Of a stretch of DNA of 64,000 bases, positions 3,444 to 54,761 are shown piece after piece. Every line of letters begins with the position of its first letter. Position 1 is the first letter of the stretch. Source of the stretch: an uncultured bacterium. GTDB taxonomy: Bacteria; Fidelibacterota; Marinisomatia; Marinisomatales; JACNKV01. The stretch spans positions 193,750-257,749 of the forward strand of contig CAYQZV010000001.1 of the NCBI GenBank assembly GCA_964422145.1. The letters run 5' to 3'. The position numbers and the translations under genes are program-made. The notes beneath the pieces were generated by a model, which was not told the DNA's origin, did no database searches, and saw only the letters and a list, made by a program, of their open reading frames with translations.

Positions 3444-3450
3444 GTGAAAC
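3436..3450. promoter_or_regulatory. Copy 2 of TGTTTCACGTGAAAC. It spans the mnmE stop codon (TAG, 3450-3452) and the mnmG GTG start (3441-3443).
   Basis: Read directly from the sequence; identical to 1541-1555. Confidence 0.5.
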
Positions 3451-6427: not shown

Positions 6428-6429
6428 AA

Positions 6430-6696
6430 TTATTTGACCGGATCATAACCTCCCGGATGGTAGGGGTGACATTTTGAAATACGCTTTCCAATAAGGAAGA
6501 AAGCATGGTGAAAAGATTTAGTTTTTAATGCGTCCAGCGCATAGCTAGAACAGGTGGGCTGAAAGCGGCACGAACTGCCGAAAAAATGCGAAAGCGTCAG
6601 TTGGTAAAGACGTACGATATAAATAAAAACTTTACGAAAGAAGCGGTCAATAAACGAGTAGATTGAACGATCTTCACAGCAAAGAAGCTTTCGCAC
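6430..6696 (-). CDS. yidD: Membrane protein insertion efficiency factor YidD
   Basis: 88 aa with the YidD signature ...CRFQPTCSSYALDAL...CHPYHPGGYDPV. The GTG start overlaps the rpmH stop by 1 nt (TAGTG). Confidence 0.9.
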   Translation of the reverse strand: MRKLLCCEDRSIYSFIDRFFRKVFIYIVRLYQLTLSHFFGSSCRFQPTCSSYALDALKTKSFHHAFFLIGKRISKCHPYHPGGYDPVK

Positions 6697-6830
6697 TAGG
6701 CAGAAAGAACCTTCCGTCCTTTTTTACGACGACGAGCTAGTACAGCACGGCCACCGACGGTAGACATTCTTTCTCTGAATCCGTGTTTATTCTTGCGCTT
6801 GCGATTACTTGGTTGAAATGTACGTTTCAT
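6696..6830 (-). CDS. rpmH: 50S ribosomal protein L34
   Basis: [47 protein letters not shown] at 6830 is preceded by AGGAGA (reverse complement of 6834-6840). The track ORF start at 6911 is an upstream extension. Confidence 0.93.
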
Positions 6831-6911
6831 TTTCTCTCCTATTTTAGCCGAGAAATTTACCACACTATGTAAATAGAAACAAAATAAAAACATTTGAGCA
6901 ACAAGACGCAA

Positions 6912-7075
6912 ATTTTAATATATATTAAATTCAAAAAAGGCAAACAGAGGCCAAGCAAACGATGTGATATATAAAAACCGTTTAATAAAAAAAAACTCAA
7001 AGAAACTCAAACAAAGTATTGTTTCACATTAGCAGAAACGAATAATTTTTATAAAAACAAACCTGTGGATAACCT
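6912..7075. promoter_or_regulatory. AT-rich rpmH/dnaA divergent control region. Candidate dnaA promoter and possible oriC unwinding region.
   Basis: The stretch is very AT-rich. AAACTCAAA is directly repeated at 6993-7001 and 7003-7011. A sigma70-like TTGTTT (7019-7024) - 16 nt - AATAAT (7041-7046) is present. An inverted repeat GTTTC-N9-GAAAC (7021-7039) sits in the promoter spacer. Gene strand polarity switches here. Confidence 0.4.
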
Positions 7076-7083
7076 GTGGATAA
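7064..7083 (+). promoter_or_regulatory. Two tandem perfect DnaA boxes, TGTGGATAA (7064-7072 and 7075-7083). The second contains the dnaA GTG start codon.
   Basis: Both are exact matches to the reverse complement of the consensus TTATCCACA. A 1-mismatch box, TGTGGACAA, lies at 7107-7115 inside dnaA. Confidence 0.75.
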
Positions 7084-8437
7084 CATTATTTTAAACCAAG
7101 ATTCCTTGTGGACAAAGACAAAAGAGTTCTTACGAGCATCGCTGCCGGATCACGCATTCAATACATGGTTTGACCCGATCAATTTCATTACCATGCATGG
7201 CAATGAGATGGTTTTAGAGGTTCCAAACCAGTTTTTTTATGAGTGGATTGAAAGTCATTATAAAAACACGATTGAGTCTACCATCTTTTCAAACCTCAAT
7301 CAAAAAGTCACGATAAAATATACAATTGCCCCGGAAGGTCAGCAAAAAACAGAAACAACACCTCAAAATTTAATTAATGAACAAAAAAAGAAAGAGGTAA
7401 GCAAACCCAAACTAAATGAGAAGTATATATTTTCATCGTTCATTGAAGGAAGCAATAACCAGTTCGCTAAAGCTGCATCAATGAGCGTAGCTGAAGAACC
7501 CGGGCAAAAATCATTTAATCCCCTTGTGATATACGGCGGGGTCGGATTAGGGAAAACACACCTTTTACATGCAATTGGAAATCACATATTATTTAAATCA
7601 CCGGAGAAAAACATCGTTTGTGCTTCAAGCGAAAAGTTTACACACGATTTTATTTCTAGTATTCAAAAGAACAGAACCGTTGAGTTTTCAAAATTTTATC
7701 GAAATGCGGATGTGTTACTGATTGACGATATCCAATTCTTTCAGGGGAAAGAACAAACACAGGAACAATTTTTTCACACATTTAACGAACTGTATCAATC
7801 CGGGAAACAAATTGTAATGACAGCTGATCGTTATCCGGGAGAAATGGTAAAACTACAAGACCGCCTTCTGTCACGCTTTACTTCAGGGGTGTCTGTGGAC
7901 ATTCAGCCGCCGGATTATGAAACACGGGTGGCAATCCTGATGGAAAAAGCGGAAACGAACAACCTGTCGTTATCTTACGAAATCATCGAATTTATTGCAA
8001 CACACATCACGAAAAACATCCGAGAATTAGAAAGCTCCGTGATCCAGCTGTTGGCACGATCTTCATTATTCAACAAAGAGATAGATATGAACCTTGTCCG
8101 TGACGCCATAAAAGAGCGGGTCGGGAATCGCATCAAAACAGATATTTCAATTGAAGACATTGTCAGAAGCGTCTCTCAAAAAACGAACATTTCCGAGAGA
8201 GAGATTGTCGGGACTGGACGAAAAAAACATGTAGCAGAAACAAGACAGATAGCCATGTATTTAACGCGCGAGATCATGAGTGCGTCATTAAACACAGTAG
8301 GCCTCTACTTTGGCGGCAGAGACCACACAACGGTTTTACACGCTTGCAGAACCATTGAAGAAAAGTTGAAAACCGACCAAAGAACAAAAGCGGTTGTTCA
8401 CAAAGTAAAGAGTGAATTCAAGAGTGTTTTTGACTAA
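7076..8437 (+). CDS. dnaA: Chromosomal replication initiator protein DnaA
   Basis: 453 aa. Walker A GGVGLGKTHLLHAIGN, Walker B LLIDDIQF, C-terminal DNA-binding domain (...GGRDHTTVLHACRTIE...). Confidence 0.97.
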   Translation: MDNIILNQDSLWTKTKEFLRASLPDHAFNTWFDPINFITMHGNEMVLEVPNQFFYEWIESHYKNTIESTIFSNLNQKVTIKYTIAPEGQQKTETTPQNLINEQKKKEVSKPKLNEKYIFSSFIEGSNNQFAKAASMSVAEEPGQKSFNPLVIYGGVGLGKTHLLHAIGNHILFKSPEKNIVCASSEKFTHDFISSIQKNRTVEFSKFYRNADVLLIDDIQFFQGKEQTQEQFFHTFNELYQSGKQIVMTADRYPGEMVKLQDRLLSRFTSGVSVDIQPPDYETRVAILMEKAETNNLSLSYEIIEFIATHITKNIRELESSVIQLLARSSLFNKEIDMNLVRDAIKERVGNRIKTDISIEDIVRSVSQKTNISEREIVGTGRKKHVAETRQIAMYLTREIMSASLNTVGLYFGGRDHTTVLHACRTIEEKLKTDQRTKAVVHKVKSEFKSVFD

Positions 8438-8846: not shown

Positions 8847-11800
8847 ATGAGACTACTTAAACAAACGATTGTTTTTACGCTATTAGCGACGCTTGTTTTG
8901 TCATTCGGATTTGCATCCAATGTCCAAGATAGCGAGAAGCGAGTAAGAACAAAAGATAACCACCCGGCTTTTGTCACGCCTGAACATTATGATGTCGGCA
9001 GGACAGAAGACTTCACGCTTGTCTTAACAGACTCGTGGGGCGACGGCTGGGATGGAGCCAATATGGACGTCTTTCAAAACGGAACTCTGCTTTTAGACGA
9101 TATCACCATTGACGATGGCAGCGAAGCTGTTTTTACCTTTGCTGTCGACAATGGAGACCTAATTGAAACCGTTTACACGTCCGGAAGTTATGAAAGCGAA
9201 CATAGTTATGCGTTCTATGATCAGAACGGTAACTTTATTGTAGGTGACGGGCCCAGCCCCGGGGCAGGAGTAAGCTTTACCGTAGAAATATCATATGATA
9301 TTCCTGGATGTATGAATGTCGATGCCTGTAACTACAACCCCGATGCAACCATTGATGACGGAAGCTGCTGTATAACAAACTGCTTAACGGTAAATTTGAT
9401 GGATTCTTTGGGCGACGGCTGGAACGGCAACGTATTAACAATAGGTGAGAATGTATATGAACTGCCATCTGGTTCAAGTCTTTTGATTGATGACTGTTTA
9501 GATGACGGCACATACGTCGTTACCTGTGGCGGCGGATCCTATCAGAGCGAAGTGTCTTGGGAAATCCTTGATGGTGCAGGAGCCGTATTGCTAAGCGGCG
9601 GCGCTCCATTTGAGGGCGTTCTCCTTCTTGGAGAATCAACCGACATTCTCGGTTGTACAGACTCTACCGCGGTTAATTATGATCCTGATGCAACAGTTGA
9701 CGATGGTTCATGTGTATATGAAGGCGATGAGTGTCTTTATGCGCTTGATGGCGGTGTTGTAAATGGTGCTCCCACATATGGCGCAACCACAGAAGCTTAC
9801 GACGTGGACTGGTACAGCTTTGTTGTGGACGCAGATTATGACAACGTTATTGTATCTCTCTGCGGATCCGGCTATGATACAAAACTTGAAGTTTGGGGAG
9901 CGTGCGAAGACGCAGACTACCTTGGTTATAATGATGATGCACCTTGCGGAAACTTCAATTCACAAGTTGATTTAACAAACATTGTTGCCGGAACCTATTA
10001 CGCAAAAGTTTATGGATATGGATCAAGCTTTGGTGACTATGTTCTGACACTGACCGCATTTAATAACCCAACCTCCCCGACATTAACCGCAACCGGTATC
10101 GGCAGCGGCGTTTCTCTTGAGTGGGAAGGCGTGGTTGTTGATGAGCCAGCGGCTACTCAAATGCCGACGATTAACCCGGTGAACAAAGCACTGGACGTTA
10201 AACCTTACGACACATTTACTGCCGATTTAACGGTTTATAATTCCCGTGCCCTCTATGCGCTGACAGTTGGCGGCGGATCTTGGGACTCAGAAATCAGCTG
10301 GGAAATCACTGATACCGGCGCAAACATTCTTTACAGTGGTGGCGCAGGCGTCTTTGATATTGATCTTGCTGATGGGTCATATGTCTTTAATGGTTATGAT
10401 TCATATGGTGATGGTTGGAACGGCGGAACAGCCTTGTTAGTTGATGAGAATGGCGGCTATCAGTTCTTTTATGGGCTGCTGGACGGTGATTTCTTTACTG
10501 AAACATTTGATCTGCCGACATCCGACATTTGGGGCTGTACAGATCCTGCGGCCACAAACTATAATCCAGATGCAACAATGGACGACGGATCTTGTGATTA
10601 TACAGTACCATCAAATGATGAGTGTACATCACCAGAATTCGTTGAGGGACCATATCCCACTACAGTGACGGGCTCAAACCTTGGCGCAACTGTTGATTGT
10701 GAAGGCCTTCTTGATTGGAATGCAGTATGGTATGAAATTGACTTACCCTATGCTGCAAACAATGTAACGGTCACGCTTTGTGGAAATGATGCAGCAATTT
10801 CAAACGCAGGGATTATCTTAATGGATGACTGTGCATGTGATGATTACTTTGTTGCCTCATATTCCTGGACGGAAGAAGGGTGTATTGAGTTAAGTTTTGC
10901 TGAAATCGCAGGCCCTGGAACAATTTTATATCCTGCCTATATTGAACCGCAGCAGAACTTCACGGTCACAGTAGATGTTGAAGAGGTTTATGTACCAACG
11001 TTCAATATTTATAAAGATGGAGATTCTCTTGACGTCGGAGTTGATGGAAACTCGTACGTGGATTCAGACGTAGTACTTGGAACCGAATACTGCTATACCG
11101 TTGAACAGGTTTTACCTGGCGGTGATTTATCGGGCATGTCAAACGAGGCGTGTGCATCACCACTTGAAGGTGCAACAGGCACAAGCTGTGAGGATGCAAT
11201 CCCCGCGGTTCTTGGACAAAATGATGCAGAGCTAATGCCGTTGTGGTATTCATACACAGCACAAACAGATTGTGAGCTGGAAATCACGTCACAAAACGCA
11301 ACCGGAGACGCTGCATGGGACACATACTTATATGTATATGGATCTTGCCAAACTGACGGAGACGGAAACCTTATTGATCTGATAGGGTCTAACGATGATT
11401 GCTGCGGCTATTGGGGACCATCAACGGTCTCTATTATTGTTGCGGCCGGCGATGAAGTAAAAATCTTTTGGGATGACGCATGGGATTCTCAACCGTTTAC
11501 ATTCTTTGTTAATGAGAGCGCAATACCAACATGCGAAGACGATGAGTTTGAAGATGACGACAACAAAGACATTGCTGTAAACCACGGCGCAGAAGGAACC
11601 TTTACATACGCACTCTGTATGTATGACAACGAAGGCGGAATCATGCAGCCAAGTGGTGTGGCAGCTGTTGACTGGAGTGTTGTAACAGTTGAACCATATC
11701 ACATTCTAACAGCGGCAACACACGGCACTGGAGACCCCGGAAACGATATAGATCTATTCTTTGAAGATTATGCGGGTGACGGCGTCTGTGCATGGGGAGG

Positions 11801-14800
11801 CGGAGACGATCTTGCCGGAAGCGGAAACATGGACTGTGAAGAAGAGGCTTCATGGATAAATGAAACGCTTGAGCCTGTGAATGTCTATGTCGGTGTAATC
11901 TACTATGCCGGTGAAGATCCCATCCCCTATGAGCTGACAATCTCGCTTGTAGCACCGGAATGCCCGGATGCACCTCAAAACGTTGTTGCTGAACTCTCCG
12001 GAGATCAAACATCGATTGGTGTAACATGGGACGCCCCTCTTGTCATGCCGGGAACCGCACTTGCTGAAAACCGGAAAGAACAAAGAATGAGTTTGGAGCA
12101 AGCTGATAATCAGCCCACGAGAGCAAAACTGCACTCAACCAAACAGACTGCTAGACCAACAGCAACAACCAAAGGCCCCAGATACACAGCCGACTTAACC
12201 ATCCATGAAATCAGAGCCATGTATGCCTTAACGGTTGGCGGAGGCTCATGGGATAGTGAAATCTCTTGGAACATTACAGACACAGGCGCGAACGAACTTT
12301 ACAGCGGCGCTGCTGGCGTCTTCGATGTTGATCTTGCAGATGGAACCTATATCTTTAACGGATTTGATGCTTATGGTGACGGGTGGAACGGCGGAACAGC
12401 AACCCTTGTTGATGCCGATGGAGCCGTCCAGTTTACTGCAGGATTAGAAGACGGAGAATCTTTCTCTCTTGAGTTCACTGTACCAAACGCAGAAGTATAC
12501 GGCTGTACCGACCCTGAAGCGATAAACTACAATCCTGATGCAACGGTTGATGACGGTTCATGTTATTATGCCGGTGACACATGTCTAGAGCCGCTGACAG
12601 CTACTTATGGTGAAAATGCAGCAGACGGTGTCGGCCCTCAGTATTTCTCATATGTCGCAACGATGGATGCCCTTCTCACTGTAACATCACAAAATGCAAC
12701 CGGAGACGCTGTTTGGGATACATACCTTGGCGTTTTGGGTTCCTGTGATGTAGACGAGGATGGATATTATCTTGATGTCCTAGGTGCGAATGATGATTGC
12801 TGCGACTATTGGGGACCATCCACAGTAACTACTCAGGTTACAACAGGCCAAGAAGTGATCATTTACTGGACCGGTGCTTACTCACCGGGTCCGTTTACCT
12901 TCTGGGTAACAGAAGAAGAAATGGACTGTGTTGACGATGATTTTGAAGACAATGATTCTTCATCAAGCCCGGCAGCCATTACTGAAGGAACCTATGAACT
13001 TCAGCTTTGTGCAATTGACCCGGATTGGTTTGAAATCACAGTTGATAATGGATTTGAACTACATCTAACCGTAACAGATCATTCTGAAACCGGTATGGTT
13101 GATGTGGGGATTTGGGTATTTGAACTTGATGATACATATACACAGGTTTATAGCCCGAATGAAAACGTCCATAATGTTGTGTGGGCAAACAACTCCGACC
13201 ACCCAATGGTAGCTGATTTTGCCGTTGGTGATTTCTGGGACGGCGTTCCGGAAACGGCTTACACGCTGACCGTTGCACTTGTTCCGTTTGATCAGGTTAC
13301 CTACACGGTATATCGCTCAGACAATGGTGCTGAAGAGCAAATTCAAGCTTCAGGTCTTTTAAACATGGAATACACAGACACTGCTATTTCACAGGGAAAC
13401 CAATACTGCTATACAGTTACGGCAAACCTGCCTGAATACGAAAGCATCCATTCTTGTAATGATGCCTGTGTCACCATTGTTGAGCCCCCTGCAGCTCCGA
13501 CGAACGTTCAAGCTGAAGGAACCTGGTTTGAAGACTATGCTTCCATTGTATGGTCTTGGGACTATGAAGGTTACGTTGAGCCGGCTCGAGCTGACCAACA
13601 AGCAATTAATCTGCAAGACATTCTTGACGGAACGTATCAAAACACGACGCGTGATGTTGTTGGATTTATACTTGCGTTTGAATTCGGCGGAACAGTGTAT
13701 GAATTTGCAACAGAATATCTAAGCATCCTGATCTACGGATTTGCCGATGGTGATTATGTTTGCGGATGGGTTTATGCTGTTGATGATAACGGTGTGTTAT
13801 CTCTGCCTTCAGACACAGCATGTGCTGAAGCAGGCGGCGAAACAGGCTGTGAAGTTGTCGCTGACAACCTTGAAGGCTGGAACCTAATCAGTCTTGCTGT
13901 TGGTGTTGAAGACGCATCTGTTTCTGCTCTCTATCCGGGATCAATTGAAGGAACCTGTTATGGATATCCATATGGTGAACCTGTGAATACACTAGTAAAC
14001 GGTGATGGATACTGGTTAAGATTCACCGCAGCTGGAACAAACACCTTTGCAGGCGACTGCACAGATGATGTGGCTGTCTCCTTAGCTGAAGGCTGGAACT
14101 TGATTGGTAGTGTTTCTGCTTCTGCTGGACTAGCTGATCCGAGTGGTGTTATCATAGAGGGAACCCTGTATGATTATCCATATGGTGAACCCGCAACATC
14201 TGTTGAGCCAGGTAAAGGATACTGGGTACGCGCAAGCGCAGCCGGAGACGTAACGGTTTCTACCTCTGCTCTCGGCGGCTTAGCAAGAATCAGCGAACCG
14301 GAAGCCAATGTTCTTACGATCAACGGAATGAAACTGTACTTCGGTATGGATATGAATGAAAAAGATGCGCTGAGCTTCAGTATGCCTCCGAAACCGCCAG
14401 CAGGTGCATTTGATGTGCGTTTTGCCGGTGACATGAGAGCTATTGAGACATCAGGCATGATCCAAACCCAGGGAACAGATAATCTGTCCATCGAGTGGAA
14501 CGTGACCAAAGAAGCCGGTGACCACATGTTCTGGACAATCACAACCACGGATGGTCAAGTGATTGAAATGAATGGTTTTGGCAGTGTTGAATTATCTGGA
14601 AATATCAACAGCATTATGCTGGGTAAAACCAGAGAAATTCCTGAGCAGTTTATGCTTGCTCAAAACTTCCCGAACCCGTTCAACCCGGTAACCAGCATTG
14701 ATTATGCTCTTCCGGAAGAAGGCTTTGTAACGATCAGCGTTTACAATATCATGGGACAAAAAGTCACCGAACTTGTAAACAGCGTGAAACAAGGCGGATA

Positions 14801-14921
14801 CCATACGGTTGTTTGGAACGGAACCAATTCTCTTGGCGAACCAGTTTCTACCGGTGTATATATGTACGCGATTGAAGCTGAAGGCTTTACGGCTGTCAAG
14901 AAAATGATCTTGATGAAATAA
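8847..14921 (+). CDS. Giant modular secreted protein (2024 aa), a T9SS cargo. It has GDGW(N/D)G modules, Cys-bracketed NY(N/D)PDATxDDGSC linkers, PPC-like (pre-peptidase C-terminal-like) domains and Fn3-like mini-domains. No catalytic domain was recognised.
   Basis: AAGGAG SD 7 nt upstream of the ATG. Signal peptide MRLLKQTIVFTLLATLVLSFGFA. The frame stays open for 6 kb. The C-terminal tail NFPNPFNPVTSIDY...GVYMYAIEAEGFTAVKKMILMK is typical of the T9SS type-A sorting domain. Confidence 0.85.
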   Translation: MRLLKQTIVFTLLATLVLSFGFASNVQDSEKRVRTKDNHPAFVTPEHYDVGRTEDFTLVLTDSWGDGWDGANMDVFQNGTLLLDDITIDDGSEAVFTFAVDNGDLIETVYTSGSYESEHSYAFYDQNGNFIVGDGPSPGAGVSFTVEISYDIPGCMNVDACNYNPDATIDDGSCCITNCLTVNLMDSLGDGWNGNVLTIGENVYELPSGSSLLIDDCLDDGTYVVTCGGGSYQSEVSWEILDGAGAVLLSGGAPFEGVLLLGESTDILGCTDSTAVNYDPDATVDDGSCVYEGDECLYALDGGVVNGAPTYGATTEAYDVDWYSFVVDADYDNVIVSLCGSGYDTKLEVWGACEDADYLGYNDDAPCGNFNSQVDLTNIVAGTYYAKVYGYGSSFGDYVLTLTAFNNPTSPTLTATGIGSGVSLEWEGVVVDEPAATQMPTINPVNKALDVKPYDTFTADLTVYNSRALYALTVGGGSWDSEISWEITDTGANILYSGGAGVFDIDLADGSYVFNGYDSYGDGWNGGTALLVDENGGYQFFYGLLDGDFFTETFDLPTSDIWGCTDPAATNYNPDATMDDGSCDYTVPSNDECTSPEFVEGPYPTTVTGSNLGATVDCEGLLDWNAVWYEIDLPYAANNVTVTLCGNDAAISNAGIILMDDCACDDYFVASYSWTEEGCIELSFAEIAGPGTILYPAYIEPQQNFTVTVDVEEVYVPTFNIYKDGDSLDVGVDGNSYVDSDVVLGTEYCYTVEQVLPGGDLSGMSNEACASPLEGATGTSCEDAIPAVLGQNDAELMPLWYSYTAQTDCELEITSQNATGDAAWDTYLYVYGSCQTDGDGNLIDLIGSNDDCCGYWGPSTVSIIVAAGDEVKIFWDDAWDSQPFTFFVNESAIPTCEDDEFEDDDNKDIAVNHGAEGTFTYALCMYDNEGGIMQPSGVAAVDWSVVTVEPYHILTAATHGTGDPGNDIDLFFEDYAGDGVCAWGGGDDLAGSGNMDCEEEASWINETLEPVNVYVGVIYYAGEDPIPYELTISLVAPECPDAPQNVVAELSGDQTSIGVTWDAPLVMPGTALAENRKEQRMSLEQADNQPTRAKLHSTKQTARPTATTKGPRYTADLTIHEIRAMYALTVGGGSWDSEISWNITDTGANELYSGAAGVFDVDLADGTYIFNGFDAYGDGWNGGTATLVDADGAVQFTAGLEDGESFSLEFTVPNAEVYGCTDPEAINYNPDATVDDGSCYYAGDTCLEPLTATYGENAADGVGPQYFSYVATMDALLTVTSQNATGDAVWDTYLGVLGSCDVDEDGYYLDVLGANDDCCDYWGPSTVTTQVTTGQEVIIYWTGAYSPGPFTFWVTEEEMDCVDDDFEDNDSSSSPAAITEGTYELQLCAIDPDWFEITVDNGFELHLTVTDHSETGMVDVGIWVFELDDTYTQVYSPNENVHNVVWANNSDHPMVADFAVGDFWDGVPETAYTLTVALVPFDQVTYTVYRSDNGAEEQIQASGLLNMEYTDTAISQGNQYCYTVTANLPEYESIHSCNDACVTIVEPPAAPTNVQAEGTWFEDYASIVWSWDYEGYVEPARADQQAINLQDILDGTYQNTTRDVVGFILAFEFGGTVYEFATEYLSILIYGFADGDYVCGWVYAVDDNGVLSLPSDTACAEAGGETGCEVVADNLEGWNLISLAVGVEDASVSALYPGSIEGTCYGYPYGEPVNTLVNGDGYWLRFTAAGTNTFAGDCTDDVAVSLAEGWNLIGSVSASAGLADPSGVIIEGTLYDYPYGEPATSVEPGKGYWVRASAAGDVTVSTSALGGLARISEPEANVLTINGMKLYFGMDMNEKDALSFSMPPKPPAGAFDVRFAGDMRAIETSGMIQTQGTDNLSIEWNVTKEAGDHMFWTITTTDGQVIEMNGFGSVELSGNINSIMLGKTREIPEQFMLAQNFPNPFNPVTSIDYALPEEGFVTISVYNIMGQKVTELVNSVKQGGYHTVVWNGTNSLGEPVSTGVYMYAIEAEGFTAVKKMILMK
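10221..11950 (+). repeat. Intragenic super-module A of the 2024-aa protein. Order: GGGSWDSEISW/GDGWNG module, Cys linker, an extra PPC-like plus Fn3-like insert (10601-11183), the TSQNATGD PPC-like domain, then the CEDDEFEDDD PPC-like domain.
   Basis: The protein and DNA are paralogous to 12189-13290. For example, LYALTVGGGSWDSEISWEITDTGANILYSGGAGVFDIDLADGSYVFNGYDSYGDGWNGGTALLVD aligns with MYALTVGGGSWDSEISWNITDTGANELYSGAAGVFDVDLADGTYIFNGFDAYGDGWNGGTATLVD. Confidence 0.8.
12189..13290 (+). repeat. Intragenic super-module B, paralogous to A but lacking the 10601-11183 insert
   Basis: Same domain order and high residue identity. For example, TSQNATGDAVWDTYLGVLGSC...NDDCCDYWGPSTV aligns with TSQNATGDAAWDTYLYVYGSC...NDDCCGYWGPSTV. 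Confidence 0.8.
13866..14258 (+). repeat. Tandem ~65-aa repeat (2 copies) with the pattern L-EGWNLI(S/G)...Y-YPYGEP...G-GYW(L/V)R..AAG
   Basis: NLEGWNLISLAVG...CYGYPYGEPVNTLVNGDGYWLRFTAAG is followed by LAEGWNLIGSVSA...LYDYPYGEPATSVEPGKGYWVRASAAG. Confidence 0.7.
14649..14918 (+). other. T9SS C-terminal sorting domain (Por secretion tail) of the 2024-aa protein
   Basis: Motif series NFPNPFNP...I.Y.L......ISVYNIMGQKV..L......G.H.V.W.G.N..G..V..GVY.Y......F...KKM.L.K. Confidence 0.85.
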
Positions 14922-14933
14922 AATAACGAATAT

Positions 14934-14963
14934 AGATACGTGCCGCTTTTGCGGCACGTATCT
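14934..14963 (+). terminator. Perfect 13-bp stem hairpin (AGATACGTGCCGC-TTTT-GCGGCACGTATCT) 13 nt after the stop codon
   Basis: Read directly. There is no U-tract after the stem, so it is either an atypical terminator or an RNA-stability element. Confidence 0.55.
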
Positions 14964-15185
14964 AATATGTCGAAACAAACATAAAGATTAAGTACGTCCT
15001 CTTGGAGAGAAGTTGTTCTTTTCTCCGGGAGGATGTGGGTTATGAAGGAAAGCACCTGAACACCCTTTGATAAAACAGAGACTTTTATAAATAGAAAAAG
15101 ATTTTAACACAGTTATGTGAAAAGACAGATGCGGTTATACCCATTTGTACAAATATGAAGAACAATAAACGTTGGAGGAAATACA

Positions 15186-18100
15186 ATGTTTAAAACAATC
15201 AAATGCTTAAGCCTTGTGCTTGTTCTGTTTGCAGGACTAAGCGCCCAGGGCTTATTCTTCTCTGAATATATTGAGGGAAGTTCAAATAATAAGGCGTTGG
15301 AAATTTATAATCCGACAGATACAGATATCGATCTGTCCGGCTATGCGTTTCCGAATGTTTCAAATGCGCCGACCACTCCTGGTGAATACGAATATTGGAA
15401 CACATTCGACACAGGAGCGATTGTTCCGGCTGGTGGCGTATATGTGATCGCTCACCCGGATGCTGACCCGACCATTTTGGCAGTAGCCAACCAAACCTTC
15501 ACATATTTAAGCAATGGTGATGATGGATTTTCTTTAGTACAGGGAACCGAGACTGACTTTGTAGCCATTGATTGGATTGGTGATTGGAATGGTGATCCGG
15601 GCTCCGGTTGGGATGTCTGTGGACAGGCCGCTGCGACACAAAACCATACGCTTGTAAGAGCAATCGGTGTAAACAGCGGAAACGACTGGGCCGTCTCGTC
15701 TGCCTCTGAAACCTGCGAATGGGATGTTTATGACCAAAACACCTTTACATTTTTAGGATCTCACACGGCAGAAGCGCCGACGACTGTATTTGTCACGTTC
15801 CAAGTAGATGTCTCAGAACTTGATCTTGAAGGCTATGTTGATAACAACGGTGAACCATTTTACGGTGTATATGCTACAGGTAGTTTTGATGGATGGGCAG
15901 GTTGGGGAACCCAACTGACAGATGACGATGCTGATGGTATTTACGTAGGCACTGCGGAAATACCGGAAGGCACATATGAATATTTATTTACCATAAATGG
16001 ATGGAATGGTCTTGCCGGAAATCCGCCGCTTGGATCAGAATGTGATTGGAACCCCGCAGACGAATTTGCTAATTATGGAATGGTCGTTGGTCCGGAAGAC
16101 TTCACGTTAGATGTTGTTTGTTGGCAGAGCTGTATGGAATGTATCGATGCAGTTACTATCTATGATATTCAAGGACAGGCTGATGCATCACCTTATGCTG
16201 GTCAAGTTGTTGAAACATCGGGTGTGGTTACCGCGACAAACGGCAGCAACAAACACTTTATTCAGGATGGTACAGGCGCTTGGAACGGCATATATATATA
16301 TGATAGTGGAAACACTTATACTGTAGGTGACAACATTACACTGGTAGCTGAAGTAACAGAGTATTACGACCTAACTGAATTGATGAATGTCGCCAGCGTT
16401 ACAGTTAATTCTTCAGGTAATGCGCTTCCCGAACCGGTTGTACTTACAACGGCAGAGGTTAGCACGGAAGATTATGAGGGTGTTCTGGTTACGACAATCG
16501 GTCTTTGTGATAATGAAGCCAACAACTACGGTGAATGGTCTGTAGACGACGGTAGCGGTACCGCTTGGGCTGACGATCAATACTTTACTTTCGCACCGGT
16601 GCTTGGCACAGGATACGCGGTAACAGGACCGTTAAACTATTCGTATGGTGCCTACAAAATTCTCCCGCGTGATGCAGGAGATATTGTTGAGCAGGTTGTT
16701 GTTCCTGAATTTACATTTACCTTCAATGTTGCCGGCGCAGCAGACGATCGCAGTCTAACGGTTGGATTCTCAGCAGGCGCAACTGACGGTTATGATGCAG
16801 GTTTAGATACATACGCTCCTCCGGCGCCCCCAGCTCCGTCGTTTGACGTTGCCCTTGGATGGGAAAACGATCGCTACTTCACCCAAATCTTAAATGGGGC
16901 TGAAGCAGATTGGGGTGTTGAACATACATACGAAGTGCTCTTACAGTTTGATGAATCAAGCGCAATTACCTTTACTTGGGACAATACAGGACTGAGTGAA
17001 TTAGGTACATTTGTACTTGAAGATGCATTTGGTGGAAACATTGTCAATGTTGACATGAACGCAGAAACATCATTGTCTGTAGACAATCCGGCTTTGACTA
17101 TGTTAAAGCTAAGAGTAACTCCCGGTGATTATGTACCCCCTGTGGACGTACCGAACTTTGTGGGTTCAGTTAACTTTGCTGGCGCAAGCGAGAACCGTAG
17201 TTTAACTTTCGGTTTTTCTCCGGAAGCAACAGATGGATACGATGCAGGTTTAGACGCATATGCTCCTCCGGCACCTCCAGCTCCGTCGTTTGATGTTGCG
17301 CTAGGATGGGAAAACGATCGCTACTTCACCCAAATCTTAAATGGGGCTGAAGAAGATTGGGAAGTTGAACATGTTTATACACTCCAACTCCAATACGACG
17401 AATCAGGAGCCATTGCTCTTACATGGGACAACACCATGTGGGAATATTACGGTAATGTGACCCTGAGAGACGGTTGGGGCGGCGTTTTATTTAATGATGT
17501 TGACATGGTCGCTGTAAACAGTTTTGTTTTTGATAACCCCGCGTTTACAACAGCCGAGCTGTCTGTTAAACCGGGCGAATACATTCCGCTGCCACCGCCA
17601 CCGCCACCGGCACCGGAATTAACCGCAACGGCAGGTCCGGGATCCATTACACTTAGCTGGACAGCCATTGAAGAAGACACACCTCAAAACGGTGTTAACT
17701 TCACGCTTCCGATTACCGTTGACGCCGGCGGAGAAACGTCCTATACATTAACAACAGGATTTTCTTCTGATGCAACAGACGGCTATGATGAAGGAATCGA
17801 TCTTTATGCACCTCCGGCACCTCCACCCCCGTCTTTTGATGCAGCGCTCAACTGGCAGTCTGATCGGTATTACACCCAGATCTTAAATGGTGCAGACGGT
17901 ATCTATGATGAGCATGTCTATGATATCCAGCTTCAGTTTGATTCAAACAATCTGATCAACCTGACTTGGGAAAACGCAGGTTTAGCTGACCTTGGAACCT
18001 TTATTCTACAAGATGCATTTGGCGGAATGATCATTAATGTTGATATGACAGAAGTGGGCTCTGTTGTGGTTGATAACGTAGCACTTAACTTGCTGAAAGT

Positions 18101-19313
18101 ATTCATTACTCCGGTAGAGTCAAACTACTTGACCACGTTCGATTTATATCGCGATGGTGAATTGTTAGTACCCGGACTAGAAGGAACAACATACACAGAT
18201 ACAGGCTTACCACCACAAGAGTTTTGTTATACCATTACTCAAAATATGGTTGATGGATCAGTATCTGATCACTCAAACGAAGCCTGTGCAACGCCTGAAG
18301 TTTCCTCACCGCAAAACTTAACAGCGGTATTTGATGACGTTGAAGAAAACATCGATTTAAGCTGGGATGCAATGGAACAAGATATTCCAAGCAGCGATTT
18401 CGATTTCATACTTCCGATCACGGTTGATGCCGGTGGAGACGTTTCTTATACGTTAACCACAGGGTTTTCACCTCTTGCAACGGACGGCTATGATGAAGGA
18501 ATCGATCAGTATGCACCTCCGGCACCCCCACCTCCGTCCTTTGACGCAGCGCTCAGCTGGCAGTCAGATCGATACTATACGCAGATCTTAAACGGCGCAG
18601 ATGGTGTTTCTGAGGATCATATCTATGATATCCAGCTTCAGTTTGATTCAAATTATCTGATCAATCTGACGTGGGATAATACAGGGTTAGCTGATCTTGG
18701 AACCTTTATTCTCCAGGACGCTTTTGGTGGTATGATTATCGATGTTGATATGACGGAAGTTGGTTCAGTTACCGTTGATAATCCAGCCCTCAACCTGTTG
18801 AAAGTTATCATTACTCCAACATCGTTTGAATATACTCCGACGTTCAATATTTATAGGAACGGAGGATTGTATGTATCAGGAATTGAAGGAACTACCTACA
18901 CAGACGTAGACTTTGGACTGGGAACATTTTGTTATACAGTAACACAGATTTTGATAGATGACTCTGAATCAGGTCACTCAAATGAAGCTTGTGTAACAAT
19001 AGAAGATGGCGCGATTGATAATGATCTTCTCCCGGTAAGTTTTGCCTTACATCAAAACTACCCGAACCCATTCAATCCCATCACAACAATTACCTATGAT
19101 ATTGCTGAAGAAACCTTCGTCAATGTCAGTATTTACAATTTGATGGGACAAAAAGTTCGGACGCTGGTTTCTGCAAAACAAATACAAGGACAGTACTTTG
19201 TTCAGTGGGACGCAAGAAACGACCACGGCGGAGCATTGCCCACCGGTGTATATATCTATCGAATTGATGCCGGCAGTTTCACAGATGTGAGAAAACTGGT
19301 CTTAATGAAATAA
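15186..19313 (+). CDS. Giant modular secreted protein (1375 aa), a T9SS cargo. Order: lamin-tail-domain head, CBM-like beta-sandwich, ExeM/NucH-like OB-fold region without a nuclease domain, four copies of an unnamed ~140-aa PPAPPxPSFD module, two Fn3-like mini-domains, T9SS tail.
   Basis: GGAGG SD 8 nt upstream. Signal peptide MFKTIKCLSLVLVLFAGLSAQ. LTD signature LFFSEYIEGSSNNKALEIYNPTDTDIDLSGY. OB-like region IYDIQGQADASPYAGQVVETSGVVTA...YYDLTEL. C-terminal tail NYPNPFNPITTITY...GVYIYRIDAGSFTDVRKLVLMK. Confidence 0.85.
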   Translation: MFKTIKCLSLVLVLFAGLSAQGLFFSEYIEGSSNNKALEIYNPTDTDIDLSGYAFPNVSNAPTTPGEYEYWNTFDTGAIVPAGGVYVIAHPDADPTILAVANQTFTYLSNGDDGFSLVQGTETDFVAIDWIGDWNGDPGSGWDVCGQAAATQNHTLVRAIGVNSGNDWAVSSASETCEWDVYDQNTFTFLGSHTAEAPTTVFVTFQVDVSELDLEGYVDNNGEPFYGVYATGSFDGWAGWGTQLTDDDADGIYVGTAEIPEGTYEYLFTINGWNGLAGNPPLGSECDWNPADEFANYGMVVGPEDFTLDVVCWQSCMECIDAVTIYDIQGQADASPYAGQVVETSGVVTATNGSNKHFIQDGTGAWNGIYIYDSGNTYTVGDNITLVAEVTEYYDLTELMNVASVTVNSSGNALPEPVVLTTAEVSTEDYEGVLVTTIGLCDNEANNYGEWSVDDGSGTAWADDQYFTFAPVLGTGYAVTGPLNYSYGAYKILPRDAGDIVEQVVVPEFTFTFNVAGAADDRSLTVGFSAGATDGYDAGLDTYAPPAPPAPSFDVALGWENDRYFTQILNGAEADWGVEHTYEVLLQFDESSAITFTWDNTGLSELGTFVLEDAFGGNIVNVDMNAETSLSVDNPALTMLKLRVTPGDYVPPVDVPNFVGSVNFAGASENRSLTFGFSPEATDGYDAGLDAYAPPAPPAPSFDVALGWENDRYFTQILNGAEEDWEVEHVYTLQLQYDESGAIALTWDNTMWEYYGNVTLRDGWGGVLFNDVDMVAVNSFVFDNPAFTTAELSVKPGEYIPLPPPPPPAPELTATAGPGSITLSWTAIEEDTPQNGVNFTLPITVDAGGETSYTLTTGFSSDATDGYDEGIDLYAPPAPPPPSFDAALNWQSDRYYTQILNGADGIYDEHVYDIQLQFDSNNLINLTWENAGLADLGTFILQDAFGGMIINVDMTEVGSVVVDNVALNLLKVFITPVESNYLTTFDLYRDGELLVPGLEGTTYTDTGLPPQEFCYTITQNMVDGSVSDHSNEACATPEVSSPQNLTAVFDDVEENIDLSWDAMEQDIPSSDFDFILPITVDAGGDVSYTLTTGFSPLATDGYDEGIDQYAPPAPPPPSFDAALSWQSDRYYTQILNGADGVSEDHIYDIQLQFDSNYLINLTWDNTGLADLGTFILQDAFGGMIIDVDMTEVGSVTVDNPALNLLKVIITPTSFEYTPTFNIYRNGGLYVSGIEGTTYTDVDFGLGTFCYTVTQILIDDSESGHSNEACVTIEDGAIDNDLLPVSFALHQNYPNPFNPITTITYDIAEETFVNVSIYNLMGQKVRTLVSAKQIQGQYFVQWDARNDHGGALPTGVYIYRIDAGSFTDVRKLVLMK
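15249..15689 (+). other. Lamin tail domain (LTD)-like N-terminal domain
   Basis: SEYIEGSSNNKALEIYNPT...DLSGY...G.YVIAH......LSNGDDGFSLV...DWIG...NHTLVR. This is the same head seen in ExeM/NucH-type extracellular nucleases and other LTD proteins. Confidence 0.7.
16152..16684 (+). other. ExeM/NucH-like OB-fold (putative nucleic-acid or polymer binding) region. No endonuclease/exonuclease/phosphatase domain follows it.
   Basis: VTIYDIQGQADASPYAGQVVETSGVVTATNG..HFIQDGTGAWNGIYIYD...VTEYYDLTEL...YGEWSVDDGSG...YKILPRDAGDI. Confidence 0.55.
16707..17132 (+). repeat. PPAPPxPSFD module, copy R1
   Basis: ...SLTVGFSAGATDGYDAGLDTYAPPAPPAPSFDVALGWENDRYFTQILNGAEADW...FTWDNTGLSELGTFVLEDAFGG.IVNVDM...LKLRVTPGDY. 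Confidence 0.85.
17157..17582 (+). repeat. PPAPPxPSFD module, copy R2
   Basis: Paralogous to R1. A 49-nt run at 17304-17352 is identical to 16857-16905, although flanking synonymous sites differ. Confidence 0.85.
17691..18113 (+). repeat. PPAPPxPSFD module, copy R3
   Basis: ...PITVDAGGETSYTLTTGFSSDATDGYDEGIDLYAPPAPPPPSFDAALNWQSDRYYTQILNGADG...LQFDSNNLINLTWENAGLADLGTFILQDAFGGMIINVDMTEVGSV.VDN.ALNLLKVFITP. Confidence 0.85.
18393..18818 (+). repeat. PPAPPxPSFD module, copy R4
   Basis: Near-identical to R3 at the protein level (...PITVDAGGDVSYTLTTGFSPLATDGYDEGIDQYAPPAPPPPSFDAALSWQSDRYYTQILNGADG...). Confidence 0.85.
19041..19310 (+). other. T9SS C-terminal sorting domain of the 1375-aa protein
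   Basis: FALHQNYPNPFNPITTITYDI...VSIYNLMGQKVRTLV...GVYIYRIDAGSFTDVRKLVLMK. Confidence 0.85.
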
Positions 19314-19336
19314 TATTACGAATAAAAACGATAAAG

Positions 19337-19368
19337 AAAAGGGACCTGATGGGTCCCTTTTCTTTTAT
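19337..19368 (+). terminator. Rho-independent terminator (AAAAGGGACC-TGATG-GGTCCCTTTT followed by a T-tract)
   Basis: Read directly. GC-rich stem followed by CTTTTAT. Confidence 0.8.
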
Positions 19369-25946: not shown

Positions 25947-28895
25947 GTGATTTCAAAATCATATATCCGCCTAAATCAGATTTTAGCAGGGATCACATTT
26001 TTACTGTCATTAATTGTATATTTGTTTACGGTTGCACCGACCGTATCCTTTTGGGACTGTGGTGAGTTTATTGCGACGTCGTACACGCTTGGAGTGCCGC
26101 ATCCCCCGGGAAGCCCGCTGTTTTTAATCATTGGAAGGATTTTCTCGATGCTTCCGATCGGGTCGGACATCGCCTATCGAATCAATCTTATTTCACCGCT
26201 TGTCAGTGCGGCTGCAGTTCTTTTGCTGTATTTGATCATCGTGAAAGTTGTAGCACATTGGCGTGGGGAGATCCGCACAAAAGCAGATGCAATTATTGCA
26301 TTTGGCGGCGCTTTTATCGGCGCAATGGTTTTTGCATTTTCTGACAGCCATTGGTTTAATGCTGTAGAGGCAGAGGTGTATTCTATCAGCACATTTTTTA
26401 CAGCCATTGTTGTTTGGCTGATTTTACATTGGTCCGAGCGGGCTGAAAAACCCGGGAATGAACGCTATATTTTGATCATTGCATATATGATGGGATTGGC
26501 GATCGGCGTTCACTTATTGAACCTGCTTGCTCTGCCGTTTATTGCGCTGATAGTTTATTTTAAAAAGCAAGACTTTGAATGGAAATCCTTTCTCGCGCTG
26601 ATGGGAATTACCGGACTTATCTTTTTTGTCATCCACAACGGAATCATAAAAGGCCTACCAAGATTAGCCGGGATGATCGGTGTTTGGGGTGTTGTTGGGG
26701 TTGTCATTCTGATTTTTGGTGCGCTGGTTTGGTCCGTGATCGAAAAACGGAAACTTCTTTCACTGGTGCTTACGTCAGTTGTTCTTATCCTTGTCGGATA
26801 CTCAAGCTACTCCATTATTTTTATTAGGTCTAATCAAAACCCAACCATTGATGAAAACAATCCAGAAACGGTTGCTGCAGCAATTTCATACCTCGAAAGA
26901 GAACAGTACGGTCAGGTTGGGCAATTCCCAAGAAGATATAACGACCTACCCGCAAAATATGTAGTAGTGGGACCTCCAAATGAAAACAACGAGTACTCTT
27001 CTACTCAAAATCGTCGCTACATGCTCTATAACCCCAAAGAACAGTGGTCGTATTTTATCAATTATCAGATGAAAAAAATGTATTGGCGATACTTCCTGTG
27101 GCAGTTTGCAGGACGAGGACCCTCCATTGAATCTGGCGTTACCACCTTTGGAGCAAACCAGAAAGAAGACGGCGTAGACTGGAGTCAGTTCGGGTTGCCC
27201 CTTGCATTTATTCTTGGGTTTGGCGGGATGTTTTATCATTATAGCCGGGATAAAAAAGAAGCCTTTTCTGTCTTCACACTTTTTTTCTTTACCGGCTTGG
27301 CCATTGTGCTTTATTTAAATCAGGACAACCCGCAGCCAAGGGAAAGAGATTATTCCTATGTCGGAAGCTTTTTAGCCTTCAGCATATGGGTTGGGATTGG
27401 TGCGTCTGCAATCTTTGAAACGGTTTACCAAAAAATTAAAGAGAAACAGCTGGCGCATCGATTAAACCTGATCACATTTTTAATTTTGGTTATTACTGTT
27501 CCTGCGGTGATGCTTCAGGCAAATTACCACGAGCACAATAGGTCAGGAAACTATGTTGCATGGGACATGAGTTATAATATGCTACAGTCCTGTGAACCGA
27601 ATGCGATCATTTTCACAAACGGAGATAACGACACGTTCCCGCTTTGGTACCTACAGGAGGTTGAAGGAATCCGCAAGGATGTCACCGTGGCAAACCTCAG
27701 TTTGTTGAATACACCGTGGTACATCAAACAATTACGAGATTCCCGACCAAAGGAAACTAGATTTATCCACATGGACGACGATCAAATAAATCAATATACC
27801 TCCGGGTTGATGCCGTGGGAAACACGGACGGTTCGCATTCCAGTTGCGAATGACCCGCTGAACACAAAAGGGTATATTGAATGGACGGTAAAACCAACGT
27901 ATGGCGGCGCGGCGTTAAAAGTTCAGGACATGATGATTTTAAAAATCCTAAACGACACAAGATGGAAACACCCGATTTATTTTGCCGTGACTGTCTCTCC
28001 CGCAAATAAGTTGGGGCTGGATGAACACATGGCGATGGAAGGACTCACGTTTCGAGTACACAGTCACAAGGTTGATATGATTGATCCTGAAAAAATGGAT
28101 TTATACTTGATGACCGAACTACAAGACGAAACATGGTCAGATGAGTTCACACCAGAATCCACGATATCTACCGAAAAAGATATCGAAAAAACATTTTGGT
28201 CTAAAAACTATCAGCCGGGCTATCTTTTCAGAAACCTTGGTAACGATGATATCTACTTCAACTCGCAAATTATTCGATTGCTTCAAAACTACCGCAGCGC
28301 ATATTGGCAATTAGCCGTTCACTATTTCTTGGAATTTCAGCGAGAAGGACGAAAAGCAAATCCGGATCAAACGTATAAAGAAGAGATGCAAACAAAAGCT
28401 CTTGAAACCTTAGATCAAATGTCCAAAAACATCCCTGAAAAAACAATACATCTTGAATCTCGAGAACTTTATTATCAAATCGGAATGTTGTACGGCCAGC
28501 TTGGAAACACAGCGCGATTCGAAGAGGTATTAGATGAAATTTCATCTAGAAAAAATCTTTCCGTGGACGAATTATTACGATATGGTCAAACCTACGTCCA
28601 AGAAGTGGGGAATTATGAAAAGGCTAAAAACATTTTCGAAACACTTTATTATTCATATTTACGGCAGGAAGAATCTGTAAAGGAAAAAGGCTTAAGCCGA
28701 TCTGGGTTAACACAAAGGTCATGGAACACATGGAAAAAAAGTTTTACAGAGATTGTTTCATCCCTGGTGTTGATCTACAAAGAATTGGGGCTGGATGAGC
28801 AATACAAGAAGGTTTTGACAGAGTGGGTTAAGCGTAACCCAACAGACACTAAAGCAAAACAAATGCTTTCAGAATCAGACGGCGAACAAAACTAA
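25947..28895 (+). CDS. DUF2723 (TMEM260-like) GT-C-fold membrane glycosyltransferase candidate with a C-terminal helical/TPR-like domain
   Basis: 982 aa, more than 10 TM helices. N-terminal signature APTVSFWDCGEFIATSYTLGVPHPPGSPLF. The soluble C-terminal ~450 aa is helical-repeat-like. GTG start 4 nt after the DUF1844 stop. Confidence 0.7.
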   Translation: MISKSYIRLNQILAGITFLLSLIVYLFTVAPTVSFWDCGEFIATSYTLGVPHPPGSPLFLIIGRIFSMLPIGSDIAYRINLISPLVSAAAVLLLYLIIVKVVAHWRGEIRTKADAIIAFGGAFIGAMVFAFSDSHWFNAVEAEVYSISTFFTAIVVWLILHWSERAEKPGNERYILIIAYMMGLAIGVHLLNLLALPFIALIVYFKKQDFEWKSFLALMGITGLIFFVIHNGIIKGLPRLAGMIGVWGVVGVVILIFGALVWSVIEKRKLLSLVLTSVVLILVGYSSYSIIFIRSNQNPTIDENNPETVAAAISYLEREQYGQVGQFPRRYNDLPAKYVVVGPPNENNEYSSTQNRRYMLYNPKEQWSYFINYQMKKMYWRYFLWQFAGRGPSIESGVTTFGANQKEDGVDWSQFGLPLAFILGFGGMFYHYSRDKKEAFSVFTLFFFTGLAIVLYLNQDNPQPRERDYSYVGSFLAFSIWVGIGASAIFETVYQKIKEKQLAHRLNLITFLILVITVPAVMLQANYHEHNRSGNYVAWDMSYNMLQSCEPNAIIFTNGDNDTFPLWYLQEVEGIRKDVTVANLSLLNTPWYIKQLRDSRPKETRFIHMDDDQINQYTSGLMPWETRTVRIPVANDPLNTKGYIEWTVKPTYGGAALKVQDMMILKILNDTRWKHPIYFAVTVSPANKLGLDEHMAMEGLTFRVHSHKVDMIDPEKMDLYLMTELQDETWSDEFTPESTISTEKDIEKTFWSKNYQPGYLFRNLGNDDIYFNSQIIRLLQNYRSAYWQLAVHYFLEFQREGRKANPDQTYKEEMQTKALETLDQMSKNIPEKTIHLESRELYYQIGMLYGQLGNTARFEEVLDEISSRKNLSVDELLRYGQTYVQEVGNYEKAKNIFETLYYSYLRQEESVKEKGLSRSGLTQRSWNTWKKSFTEIVSSLVLIYKELGLDEQYKKVLTEWVKRNPTDTKAKQMLSESDGEQN

Positions 28896-54630: not shown

Positions 54631-54761
54631 GTGAAAAAAACTGTTTTATATATATCTCTTGTAATATTATATTTCTAACAGATATAACGATTATAACAGT
54701 AATAATAGTTATAATAGAATCTGGGATTCGCGTGTATATCAAAAAATCGAATGGAGCCACA

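Follow-up and report, generated by a model that had tools for sequence, protein, structure and literature searches.

ExeM consists of a signal, a lamin tail domain (LTD), two YhcR-like oligonucleotide/oligosaccharide-binding (OB) folds, and a domain of the endonuclease/exonuclease/phosphatase (EEP) type at residues 464-830 (PMC6085458). In Xds, the LTD spans residues 30-134, the OB fold 221-300, and the EEP domain 473-846 (PMC6746945), while SpnA of Streptococcus pyogenes contains four OB folds (OB1-4) followed by its nuclease, with OB3 and OB4 resolved beside the nuclease domain (PMC13601614). The OB domains are needed for nuclease activity or DNA binding in ExeM (PMC6085458), Xds (PMC6746945), and SpnA (PMC13601614). 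Here we analyzed a gene within a 64,000-nucleotide stretch of contig CAYQZV010000001.1 (referred to here as the window) from an uncultured bacterium of the Marinimicrobia. The gene is a single open reading frame at 15186-19313 of the forward strand and encodes 1375 amino acids, with boundaries identical to those in an earlier reading of the same DNA, made by a model from the sequence alone (the first-pass annotation). Our data suggest that its product resembles the substrate-binding half of an ExeM/SpnA-type nuclease placed on the chassis of an adhesin of the type IX secretion system (T9SS). We propose, with a probability of roughly 55%, that it is a non-enzymatic surface protein of Marinimicrobia (SAR406-type) whose head captures extracellular DNA, or a similar polymer, while held out on a stalk.

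The window protein shares with ExeM, Xds, and NucH a signal peptide and an LTD followed by a YhcR-like OB-fold region in equal order, and like them it would be a cell-envelope-associated protein. Unlike them, it contains no EEP domain and has in its place four copies of a repeat module (the PPAPP module) together with Fn3 domains; furthermore, it has a CBM48-like domain between the LTD and the OB region, and its tail is a T9SS sorting domain whereas theirs is of the GlyGly-CTERM/rhombosortase type. Similar to SpnA (PDB 9sf8/9sf9), it has an OB pair homologous to OB3-OB4 and, as predicted here, is anchored to the surface through its C terminus; unlike SpnA, it lacks a nuclease, belongs to the T9SS rather than the sortase/LPXTG route, and has an LTD and a CBM-like domain. 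The first-pass annotation had described the LTD and OB regions of ExeM-type nucleases as flanking the EEP domain, which is incorrect since both lie N-terminal to it in ExeM and Xds, and OB1-4 of SpnA are placed likewise. In the window protein, the modules begin exactly at the expected place of the nuclease, and nothing has been removed between the LTD and the OB region. The mature chain is composed throughout of beta-rich binding or spacer domains: the LTD, the CBM48-like domain, the OB pair, two free and two nested modules, and Fn3.

We found that the signal peptide, read by eye from the sequence, has basic N-terminal residues, a hydrophobic core, and an A-x-Q/G site, and that homologues begin their LTD at an identical "LFFSEY". 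The LTD reported in the first-pass annotation is confirmed by a match to PF00932 (Pfam) above the gathering score at residues 21-126 (E = 1.5e-11 with the whole protein, or 1.7e-12). Among NCBIfam models, NF033680 (ExeM) matched at positions 24-176 of 884 only, corresponding to residues 21-195, with a score of 62.6 bits against a cutoff of 1300, and NF033681 (ExeM_NucH_DNase) matched at positions 2-108 of 546 only, corresponding to residues 345-437 (E = 5.7e-8), with 32.1 bits against a cutoff of 300. The EEP-bearing portion of NF033681 is unmatched. With the defining EEP domain absent and scores far under the cutoffs, the window protein lies outside the ExeM/NucH family.

In an AlphaFold2 (AF2) model of residues 196-505, residues 336-505 are all-beta with a pLDDT of 94-98, and a Foldseek search of this region against the PDB returned OB folds only (probability 1.00, E down to 5.5e-5). 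The matches comprise the HIN-200 domains of IFI16, p204, and AIM2, Teb1 AB, RPA and CST subunits, Thermus SSB, YgiW, and the anticodon-binding domains of aspartyl-, asparaginyl-, and lysyl-tRNA synthetases. Similar to the OB pair, HIN-200 domains consist of two tandem OB barrels, and they bind double-stranded DNA without cutting it; the likeness is at the level of fold only (10-12% identity, TM score 0.25-0.40 with the two-domain model), HIN-200 proteins are eukaryotic and intracellular, and there is no sign of common descent. A profile of the OB region also matched 9sf8/9sf9 (E = 7.7e-7) over chain residues 13-80 and 210-233. The second of these stretches in 9sf8 is the motif GPVSYSYGNYKV, whose counterpart in the window protein, GPLNYSYGAYKILPRD, lies at the extreme end of the OB pair, such that the terminal YSYGxYK motif, found just ahead of the nuclease domain in SpnA, is kept. 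These matches (NF033681, AF2, Foldseek, and the SpnA profile) bear out the OB-like region of the first-pass annotation and indicate that the OB pair is homologous to the pair directly ahead of the EEP domain in ExeM, Xds, NucH, and SpnA. We infer that the head may bind DNA or a similar polymer, and the one point that strengthens this reading is that the OB pair is homologous to the OB pair with which SpnA, ExeM, and Xds bind DNA.

No EEP domain (PF03372) or other nuclease, phosphatase, or hydrolase family was found in Pfam or NCBIfam with the whole protein at E ≤ 1 or with nine pieces of it at E ≤ 10. A phmmer search of the protein against all PDB sequences returned only two insignificant matches, the fold search of residues 196-505 returned OB folds and a CBM and nothing else, and once all named domains were placed no unassigned stretch of EEP length was left. 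The lack of an EEP or other catalytic domain reported in the first-pass annotation is thus upheld by Pfam, NCBIfam, PDB sequence, and fold searches. A cryptic catalytic domain between 15.7 and 16.7 kb was also rejected: a 140-residue sandwich and a 170-residue OB pair account for the region, where AF2 and Foldseek show OB folds and a CBM only. The chain runs from the end of the OB pair (YSYGAYKILPRD) directly into module 1, which means that the catalytic domain is replaced and not degraded.

The region between the LTD and the OB pair is less well defined. Residues 196-335 matched X25_BaPul_like (E = 2.1e-4, 21.8 bits, cutoff 27) and AMPK1_CBM (E = 1.5e-3, 19.1 bits, cutoff 26.8), both below gathering thresholds. 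The region is also linked transitively, by phmmer at E values of 1e-8 to 1e-13, to domains of three library proteins (P0140, P0141, and P0162) that pass the CBM_48/AMPK1_CBM thresholds. It matched the CBM of SEX4/DSP4 in the PDB, and Foldseek of this weak part of the model returned the glucan phosphatase SEX4. In the AF2 model, the pLDDT of these residues is only 35-65, because few homologues are available. Our data suggest that the CBM-like domain is real, if weakly supported; the sandwich reported in the first-pass annotation therefore stands as a weak assignment, with its bounds moved from 15781-16010 to 15771-16190.

We found at least 1339 proteins that match the head at E ≤ 1e-3. The best relatives are 40-60% identical, six of them covering 99% of the head, and are proteins of 700-800 amino acids from marine Flavobacteriales, Cloacimonadota, and Marinimicrobia (e.g., P0038, P0118, P0124, and P0131). 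Public sources label them "lamin tail domain-containing protein" or "predicted extracellular nuclease" (COG2374/K07004). PF03372 is present in none of the head relatives according to precomputed domain lists. Among 120 head matches listed, 104 contain an LTD and 87 contain the OB unit, in one to three copies each. A Pfam scan of 46 diverse head relatives gave 39 families, with the LTD in 37 of the proteins and a T9SS tail in 14; others among the 25 commonest families are plastocyanin-like, dockerin, PKD, CBM48/20/4_9, cadherin, and tRNA_anti OB domains, and no nuclease family is among these 25. Plastocyanin-like copper-binding domains occur in 7 and dockerins in 6 of the 46. These COG2374 proteins share the LTD and OB domains with the window protein, often in two or three copies, and many carry T9SS or dockerin tails; unlike the window protein, they usually comprise 700-800 amino acids, lack the PPAPP module, and have PKD domains or Cys-rich motifs as spacers between LTD and OB. 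Our data indicate that the nuclease-less LTD-OB protein is a common, unstudied type to which the window protein belongs, and that the label "extracellular nuclease" on such proteins is likely an over-annotation. The nuclease-less head, treated in the first-pass annotation as a peculiarity, is instead normal among more than 1,300 marine relatives.

A scan for the module pattern, with one genome per species, gave 25 loci, and the named ones all belong to metagenome-assembled genomes of Candidatus Marinimicrobia/Neomarinimicrobiota. One of them (L001, CAZYDH010000001.1) is syntenic with the window, with a large protein, ssb, an acyltransferase gene, and two minus-strand genes. Its orthologue at 2386-6921 (1511 amino acids) is 74% identical from the CBM-like domain through module 3. 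It has an LTD of another type (29% identity), a PKD domain, an extra domain of approximately 170 residues, two CBM-like domains, three modules, and no EEP domain. Since the orthologue has only three modules, module 4 and its Fn3 host are the product of a recent tandem duplication. This comparison shows that heads are shuffled rapidly on a conserved body of OB pair and modules.

The ratio of nonsynonymous to synonymous substitution rates (dN/dS) relative to the orthologue is 0.05 for the CBM and OB region and 0.10 for the modules, rough values given that dS is near saturation, and between internal duplicates it is 0.19-0.23. Purifying selection is strong, most so on the head. The low dN/dS indicates that the gene is maintained and is not a decaying nuclease. 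The proposal that this is an ExeM-type gene on its way to becoming a pseudogene after deletion of its EEP domain, which would account for the resemblance of the head to ExeM/NucH, is effectively refuted by these values (0.05-0.10), by the intact frame of 1375 codons, by the syntenic orthologue that likewise lacks an EEP domain, and by the nuclease-less form being the rule among relatives.

The same comparison bears on whether the protein is purely structural, its modules and Fn3 domains building a coat layer or stalk and its head a ligandless leftover of domain shuffling. We consider this improbable. Shuffling is indeed fast, the orthologue having another LTD, extra domains, and one module less; tandem duplications are recent; and the gene adjoins another giant T9SS cargo gene, as does that of P0010, a minimal module protein described below. 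However, the CBM and OB head is the most constrained portion of the protein, and its conservation across more than 1,300 proteins would not be expected of a functionless remnant.

The four modules reported in the first-pass annotation were recovered: PPAPPxPSFD occurs at residues 545, 694, 876, and 1111, pairwise BLASTP between modules gives E values of 1e-34 to 1e-43, and a hidden Markov model (HMM) of the family matches all four copies at 1e-64 to 1e-73. The modules are approximately 148 residues long. At the DNA level, modules 1 and 2 form tandem units of 447 nucleotides (starts 16729/17176) that are 78% identical, and modules 3 and 4 with their Fn3 domains form tandem units of 705 nucleotides (starts 17655/18360) that are 80% identical; module 4 shares 81% amino acid identity with module 3. 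The module has no Pfam match (four copies at E ≤ 10; six diverse relatives), no NCBIfam match, and no sequence match in the PDB, profile search included (E ≤ 10). A literature search gave nothing relevant on the module, or on LTD and T9SS in Marinimicrobia. In an AF2 model from a 24-sequence alignment, module 3 is all-beta with approximately 11 strands (pLDDT 89.8, pTM 0.84), and residues 27-50 of the module form a long loop that bears the conserved ATDGYDxGxDxYAPPxPPxPxFDA. The sole real-looking fold match, from a Foldseek search against BFVD, is A0A8D9C8P8 (TM score 0.62, E = 2.4e-4), a 587-residue "putative hemin binding protein" on an uncultured marine phage contig. The model suggests that A0A8D9C8P8 is probably another member of the module family, in which case it offers no functional clue; either the phage carries a copy of the module or a bacterial contig was binned as viral.

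We found that the module is absent from named collections and yet widespread. When 1.84 billion cluster representatives were searched exhaustively with a profile, 1484 matched at E ≤ 1e-3; of these, 581 reached E ≤ 1e-10 and 126 reached E ≤ 1e-30. The proteins hold between one and seven copies each; clusters are defined at 50% identity and the family by the alignment made in the present analysis. A word-index search with one module had found only 37 close fragments, an underestimate that the exhaustive search corrected. The module is unnamed, as the first-pass annotation had it, and its family spans 1,484 clusters. The identical protein is itself present in the cluster-representative library (P0159). 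Named module proteins belong to Marinimicrobia and Calditrichota, and their names derive from companion domains (PKD, FlgD-Ig, T9SS target). Across 44 diverse module proteins, we found 65 partner families and a T9SS tail in 23 of the 44; the 25 commonest partner families include PKD, Big_9, cadherin-like, CHB_HEX_C, Fn3, cohesin, dockerin, SusE, and CBM48 domains, and no enzyme family is among these 25. Minimal relatives (P0010) consist of a signal peptide, one module, and a sorting domain, and because some relatives have nothing else, the module is likely to have a surface role of its own. At the P0010 locus (L026 1-12245, ENA ERZ24794642), the gene lies between two others, one encoding a PKD protein more than 3000 residues long and one encoding a 675-residue PKD/cadherin T9SS protein; arrays of surface-protein genes seem typical of such genomes. 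The invariant core across the family comprises the acidic loop, the polyproline stretch, and the W.D, L.D.FGG, and DM motifs, while the aromatic DRYYTQ/H/W.N residues are confined to a Marinimicrobia subfamily. This pattern of conservation suggests that the module is probably a Ca2+-stabilized sandwich.

These features could also describe an adhesin for glycans or particles. The modules would then be a new CBM-like family that, jointly with the CBM48-like domain, attaches the cell to polysaccharide or marine particles, and the OB pair would bind oligosaccharide and not DNA. This is possible, if clearly less probable than polymer capture by the head. The module is a beta-sandwich with conserved W56, Y61, Y62, Q64, H76, W94, N96, and Q108 and an acidic, probably Ca2+-binding loop; partner domains include CBM48, CBM20, CBM4_9, CHB_HEX_C, SusE, cohesin, and dockerin domains; and the module is found alone as a surface protein (P0010). 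LTDs also occur with oligosaccharide-binding domains, in the statement of Mans et al. 2004 quoted in PMC6085458. However, the module has no sequence or fold match to any CBM, no glycoside hydrolase is among the 25 commonest of the 65 partner families or in the gene neighborhood, and the aromatic residues are conserved in the Marinimicrobia subfamily only, whereas the family-wide core is the acidic/polyproline loop.

A catalytic site in the module or in the sandwich at residues 196-335, for instance that of a new type of nuclease, phosphodiesterase, or lyase, is very unlikely. Because no homologue of the module is known, its sequence leaves such a function possible, and the module contains several invariant Asp residues and one near-invariant His. 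However, no catalytic family was matched at any threshold, AF2 predicts a plain beta-sandwich for the module, His76 is not conserved family-wide, and the occurrence of modules in one to seven copies beside adhesin-type partners is a pattern typical of binding or spacer domains.

The C-terminal two-thirds of the protein, described in the first-pass annotation as four modules, does contain four modules; it also contains Fn3 domains, inside which modules 3 and 4 lie, and a T9SS sorting domain at its end. Each of these two modules is flanked by the halves of an Fn3 domain. When the flanks of module 3 (residues 808-833 and 982-1045) were spliced, they aligned contiguously, at positions 7-80, to two canonical Fn3 repeats of P0269 with E values of 7e-6 and 4e-4 (in a local database of approximately 1,300 sequences), and the match to the Fn3-like PF18370 lengthened from profile positions 31-81 to 14-82. 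Since the spliced flanks align unbroken to Fn3, modules 3 and 4 are interpreted as whole domains in Fn3 B-C loops, which would make this a clear example of a whole domain inserted into an Fn3 loop. Two things are new here: that the module forms a large family with no name and no solved relative, and that it is nested in Fn3 loops.

The sorting domain (residues 1292-1372) was identified by PF18962 (E = 1.5e-7, 32.1 bits, cutoff 27) and FlgD_ig (E = 6e-9) in Pfam and by TIGR04183 (E = 2.3e-10, 40.3 bits, cutoff 23) in NCBIfam. Together, the signal peptide and this type-A sorting domain mark the protein as predicted T9SS cargo. Surface display, which the first-pass annotation had proposed with no reference to the sorting domain, thus gains a concrete basis. 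Similar to type-A T9SS adhesins of Bacteroidota (SprB-, RemA-, and Hbp35-type), the protein combines a signal peptide, an array of Ig-like, Fn3, or PKD-type domains, and a Por_Secre_tail, and the cargo genes are clustered; unlike in those adhesins, the repeat is a module not described so far, the host belongs to the phylum Marinimicrobia, and anchoring and function are predicted here. The coordinates of all features are collected in Table 1.

Table 1. Domains of the window protein and the adjoining hairpin, with positions in the window.
Feature	Position	Strand	Residues	Basis or remark
Sec signal peptide	15186-15248	+	1-21	MFKTIKCLSLVLVLFAGLSAQ then G; read from sequence
LTD	15246-15770	+	21-195 (Pfam core 21-126)	PF00932 and NF033680
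CBM48/CBM20-like beta-sandwich, weak assignment	15771-16190	+	196-335	sub-gathering Pfam matches and phmmer links
Tandem OB-fold pair, C-terminal end YSYGAYKILPRD	16191-16700	+	336-505	NF033681, AF2, Foldseek, SpnA profile match
Module 1, free-standing	16692-17138	+	503-651	family HMM E = 2.6e-70; PPAPPAPSFD at residue 545
Module 2, tandem duplicate of module 1	17148-17594	+	655-803	family HMM E = 1.8e-64
Fn3 host A, strands A-B, PAPELTATAGPGSITLSWTAIEEDTP	17607-17684	+	808-833	spliced-flank alignment
Module 3, in B-C loop of Fn3 A	17685-18128	+	834-981	family HMM E = 5.1e-73
Fn3 host A, strands C-G	18129-18320	+	982-1045	spliced-flank alignment
Fn3 host B, strands A-B	18321-18389	+	1046-1068	within 705-nucleotide tandem unit
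Module 4, inserted in Fn3 B	18390-18833	+	1069-1216	family HMM E = 2.4e-72
Fn3 host B, strands C-G	18834-19040	+	1217-1285	
Type-A T9SS C-terminal sorting domain	19059-19310	+	1292-1375	PF18962, FlgD_ig, TIGR04183
14-bp perfect hairpin, likely terminator	19333-19365			20 nucleotides past the stop codon

We hypothesize that the T9SS would export the protein, after which the sorting domain would be cleaved and the C terminus anchored in the outer membrane, by analogy with Bacteroidota. The LTD-CBM-OB head would then form the distal tip, and a stalk measuring a few tens of nanometers would be made up of the four modules and both Fn3 domains. At the cell surface, the head would hold extracellular DNA or some other long polymer, anionic or glycan, and leave it uncut; the captured polymer might be retained, handed over to separate nucleases, or used for attachment to particles. 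A further and more tentative extension is that the PPAPP module is a new family at the level of fold with a ligand of its own (e.g., as a Ca2+-dependent binder of glycans, DNA, or a surface partner), wide in T9SS cargo of the Fibrobacterota-Chlorobiota-Bacteroidota (FCB) group (Marinimicrobia, Calditrichota, and others), that its "display" in Fn3 loops evolved in Marinimicrobia, and that the protein is a DNA-capturing, nuclease-free receptor with a bearing on how dissolved DNA is cycled in the ocean interior.

Several points weigh against capture of DNA by a stalk-held head. OB folds bind oligosaccharides and proteins too. For the CBM48-like domain, the matches fall short of Pfam thresholds and the model is poor, and sequence conservation is the sole basis for the Ca2+ site and the stalk role. 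No T9SS machinery gene is present within the 64-kb window, and anchoring after T9SS export is known from Bacteroidota and applied to Marinimicrobia by analogy. The window also contains no nearby nuclease, nucleotidase, or uptake gene that would point to a DNA-foraging locus. Lastly, the LTD is dispensable for the nuclease activity of ExeM (PMC6085458) and Xds (PMC6746945).

The locus is chromosomal and origin-proximal, in the order mnmG, mnmE, yidC, dnaA, a gene for a 2024-residue T9SS cargo protein, the gene analyzed here, ssb, and genes for an acyltransferase and PEPCK, with only housekeeping genes farther out in the window. A search of the window for nuclease, nucleotidase, SusC/D-like, and T9SS genes gave only housekeeping genes, one TonB-type barrel, and peptidases, and no tRNA or Rfam element is present in the window. 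The genes mnmG, mnmE, and yidC (minus strand) and then dnaA (plus strand) at 1566-8437 form an origin-type gene order, and a 650-nucleotide gap at 6428-7075 could be a candidate place for oriC/DnaA boxes. The 2024-residue neighbor (8847-14921, plus strand) has a Pfam match to the sorting domain only. Cys-rich "GCTD..A.NY.P.A..DDGSC" spacers recur in it along with "DSWGDGWNG" units, and it has C-terminal halves of Fn3 domains at approximately residues 712-773 and 1474-1546 with Fn3-like A/B strands hundreds of residues upstream. The neighbor may thus share the domain-in-Fn3-loop design of the window protein with much larger inserts. A broadened module HMM also matched it weakly at approximately residues 1840-1889 (MPPKPPAGAFDVRF; domain E = 0.0025). 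A perfect 14-bp hairpin lies at 14933-14964, 12 nucleotides past the stop codon of this upstream cargo gene. This hairpin and that at 19333-19365 are probably terminators, and thus each cargo gene would be its own transcription unit. Elsewhere in the window, 25947-28895 (plus strand) encodes a 982-residue protein that combines TPR repeats with a TMEM260-like protein O-mannosyltransferase domain (E = 5e-67), a candidate glycosylation enzyme for surface proteins. Three open reading frames of 777, 557, and 423 amino acids, at 56702-59035 (plus strand), 32975-34648 (minus strand), and 54732-56003 (plus strand), have no Pfam family at E ≤ 1e-5.

In the dark ocean, Marinimicrobia (SAR406) are an abundant, uncultured group whose dealings with dissolved and particulate organic matter are poorly known. 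Our analysis brings out three points that present annotation pipelines overlook or label wrongly: the LTD-OB proteins, the module family, and the insertion into Fn3 loops. It implies that it is wrong to infer DNA degradation in metagenomes from "predicted extracellular nuclease" labels on LTD-OB proteins. Furthermore, the module family, with approximately 1,500 clusters at 50% identity, merits a family entry and a structure. The window protein is a tidy example of a common modular class of surface proteins; it changes no paradigm, and its value lies in curation and in a testable hypothesis. Should the head bind DNA, proteins of this kind would be candidate players in the initial step of capturing extracellular DNA in the deep sea.

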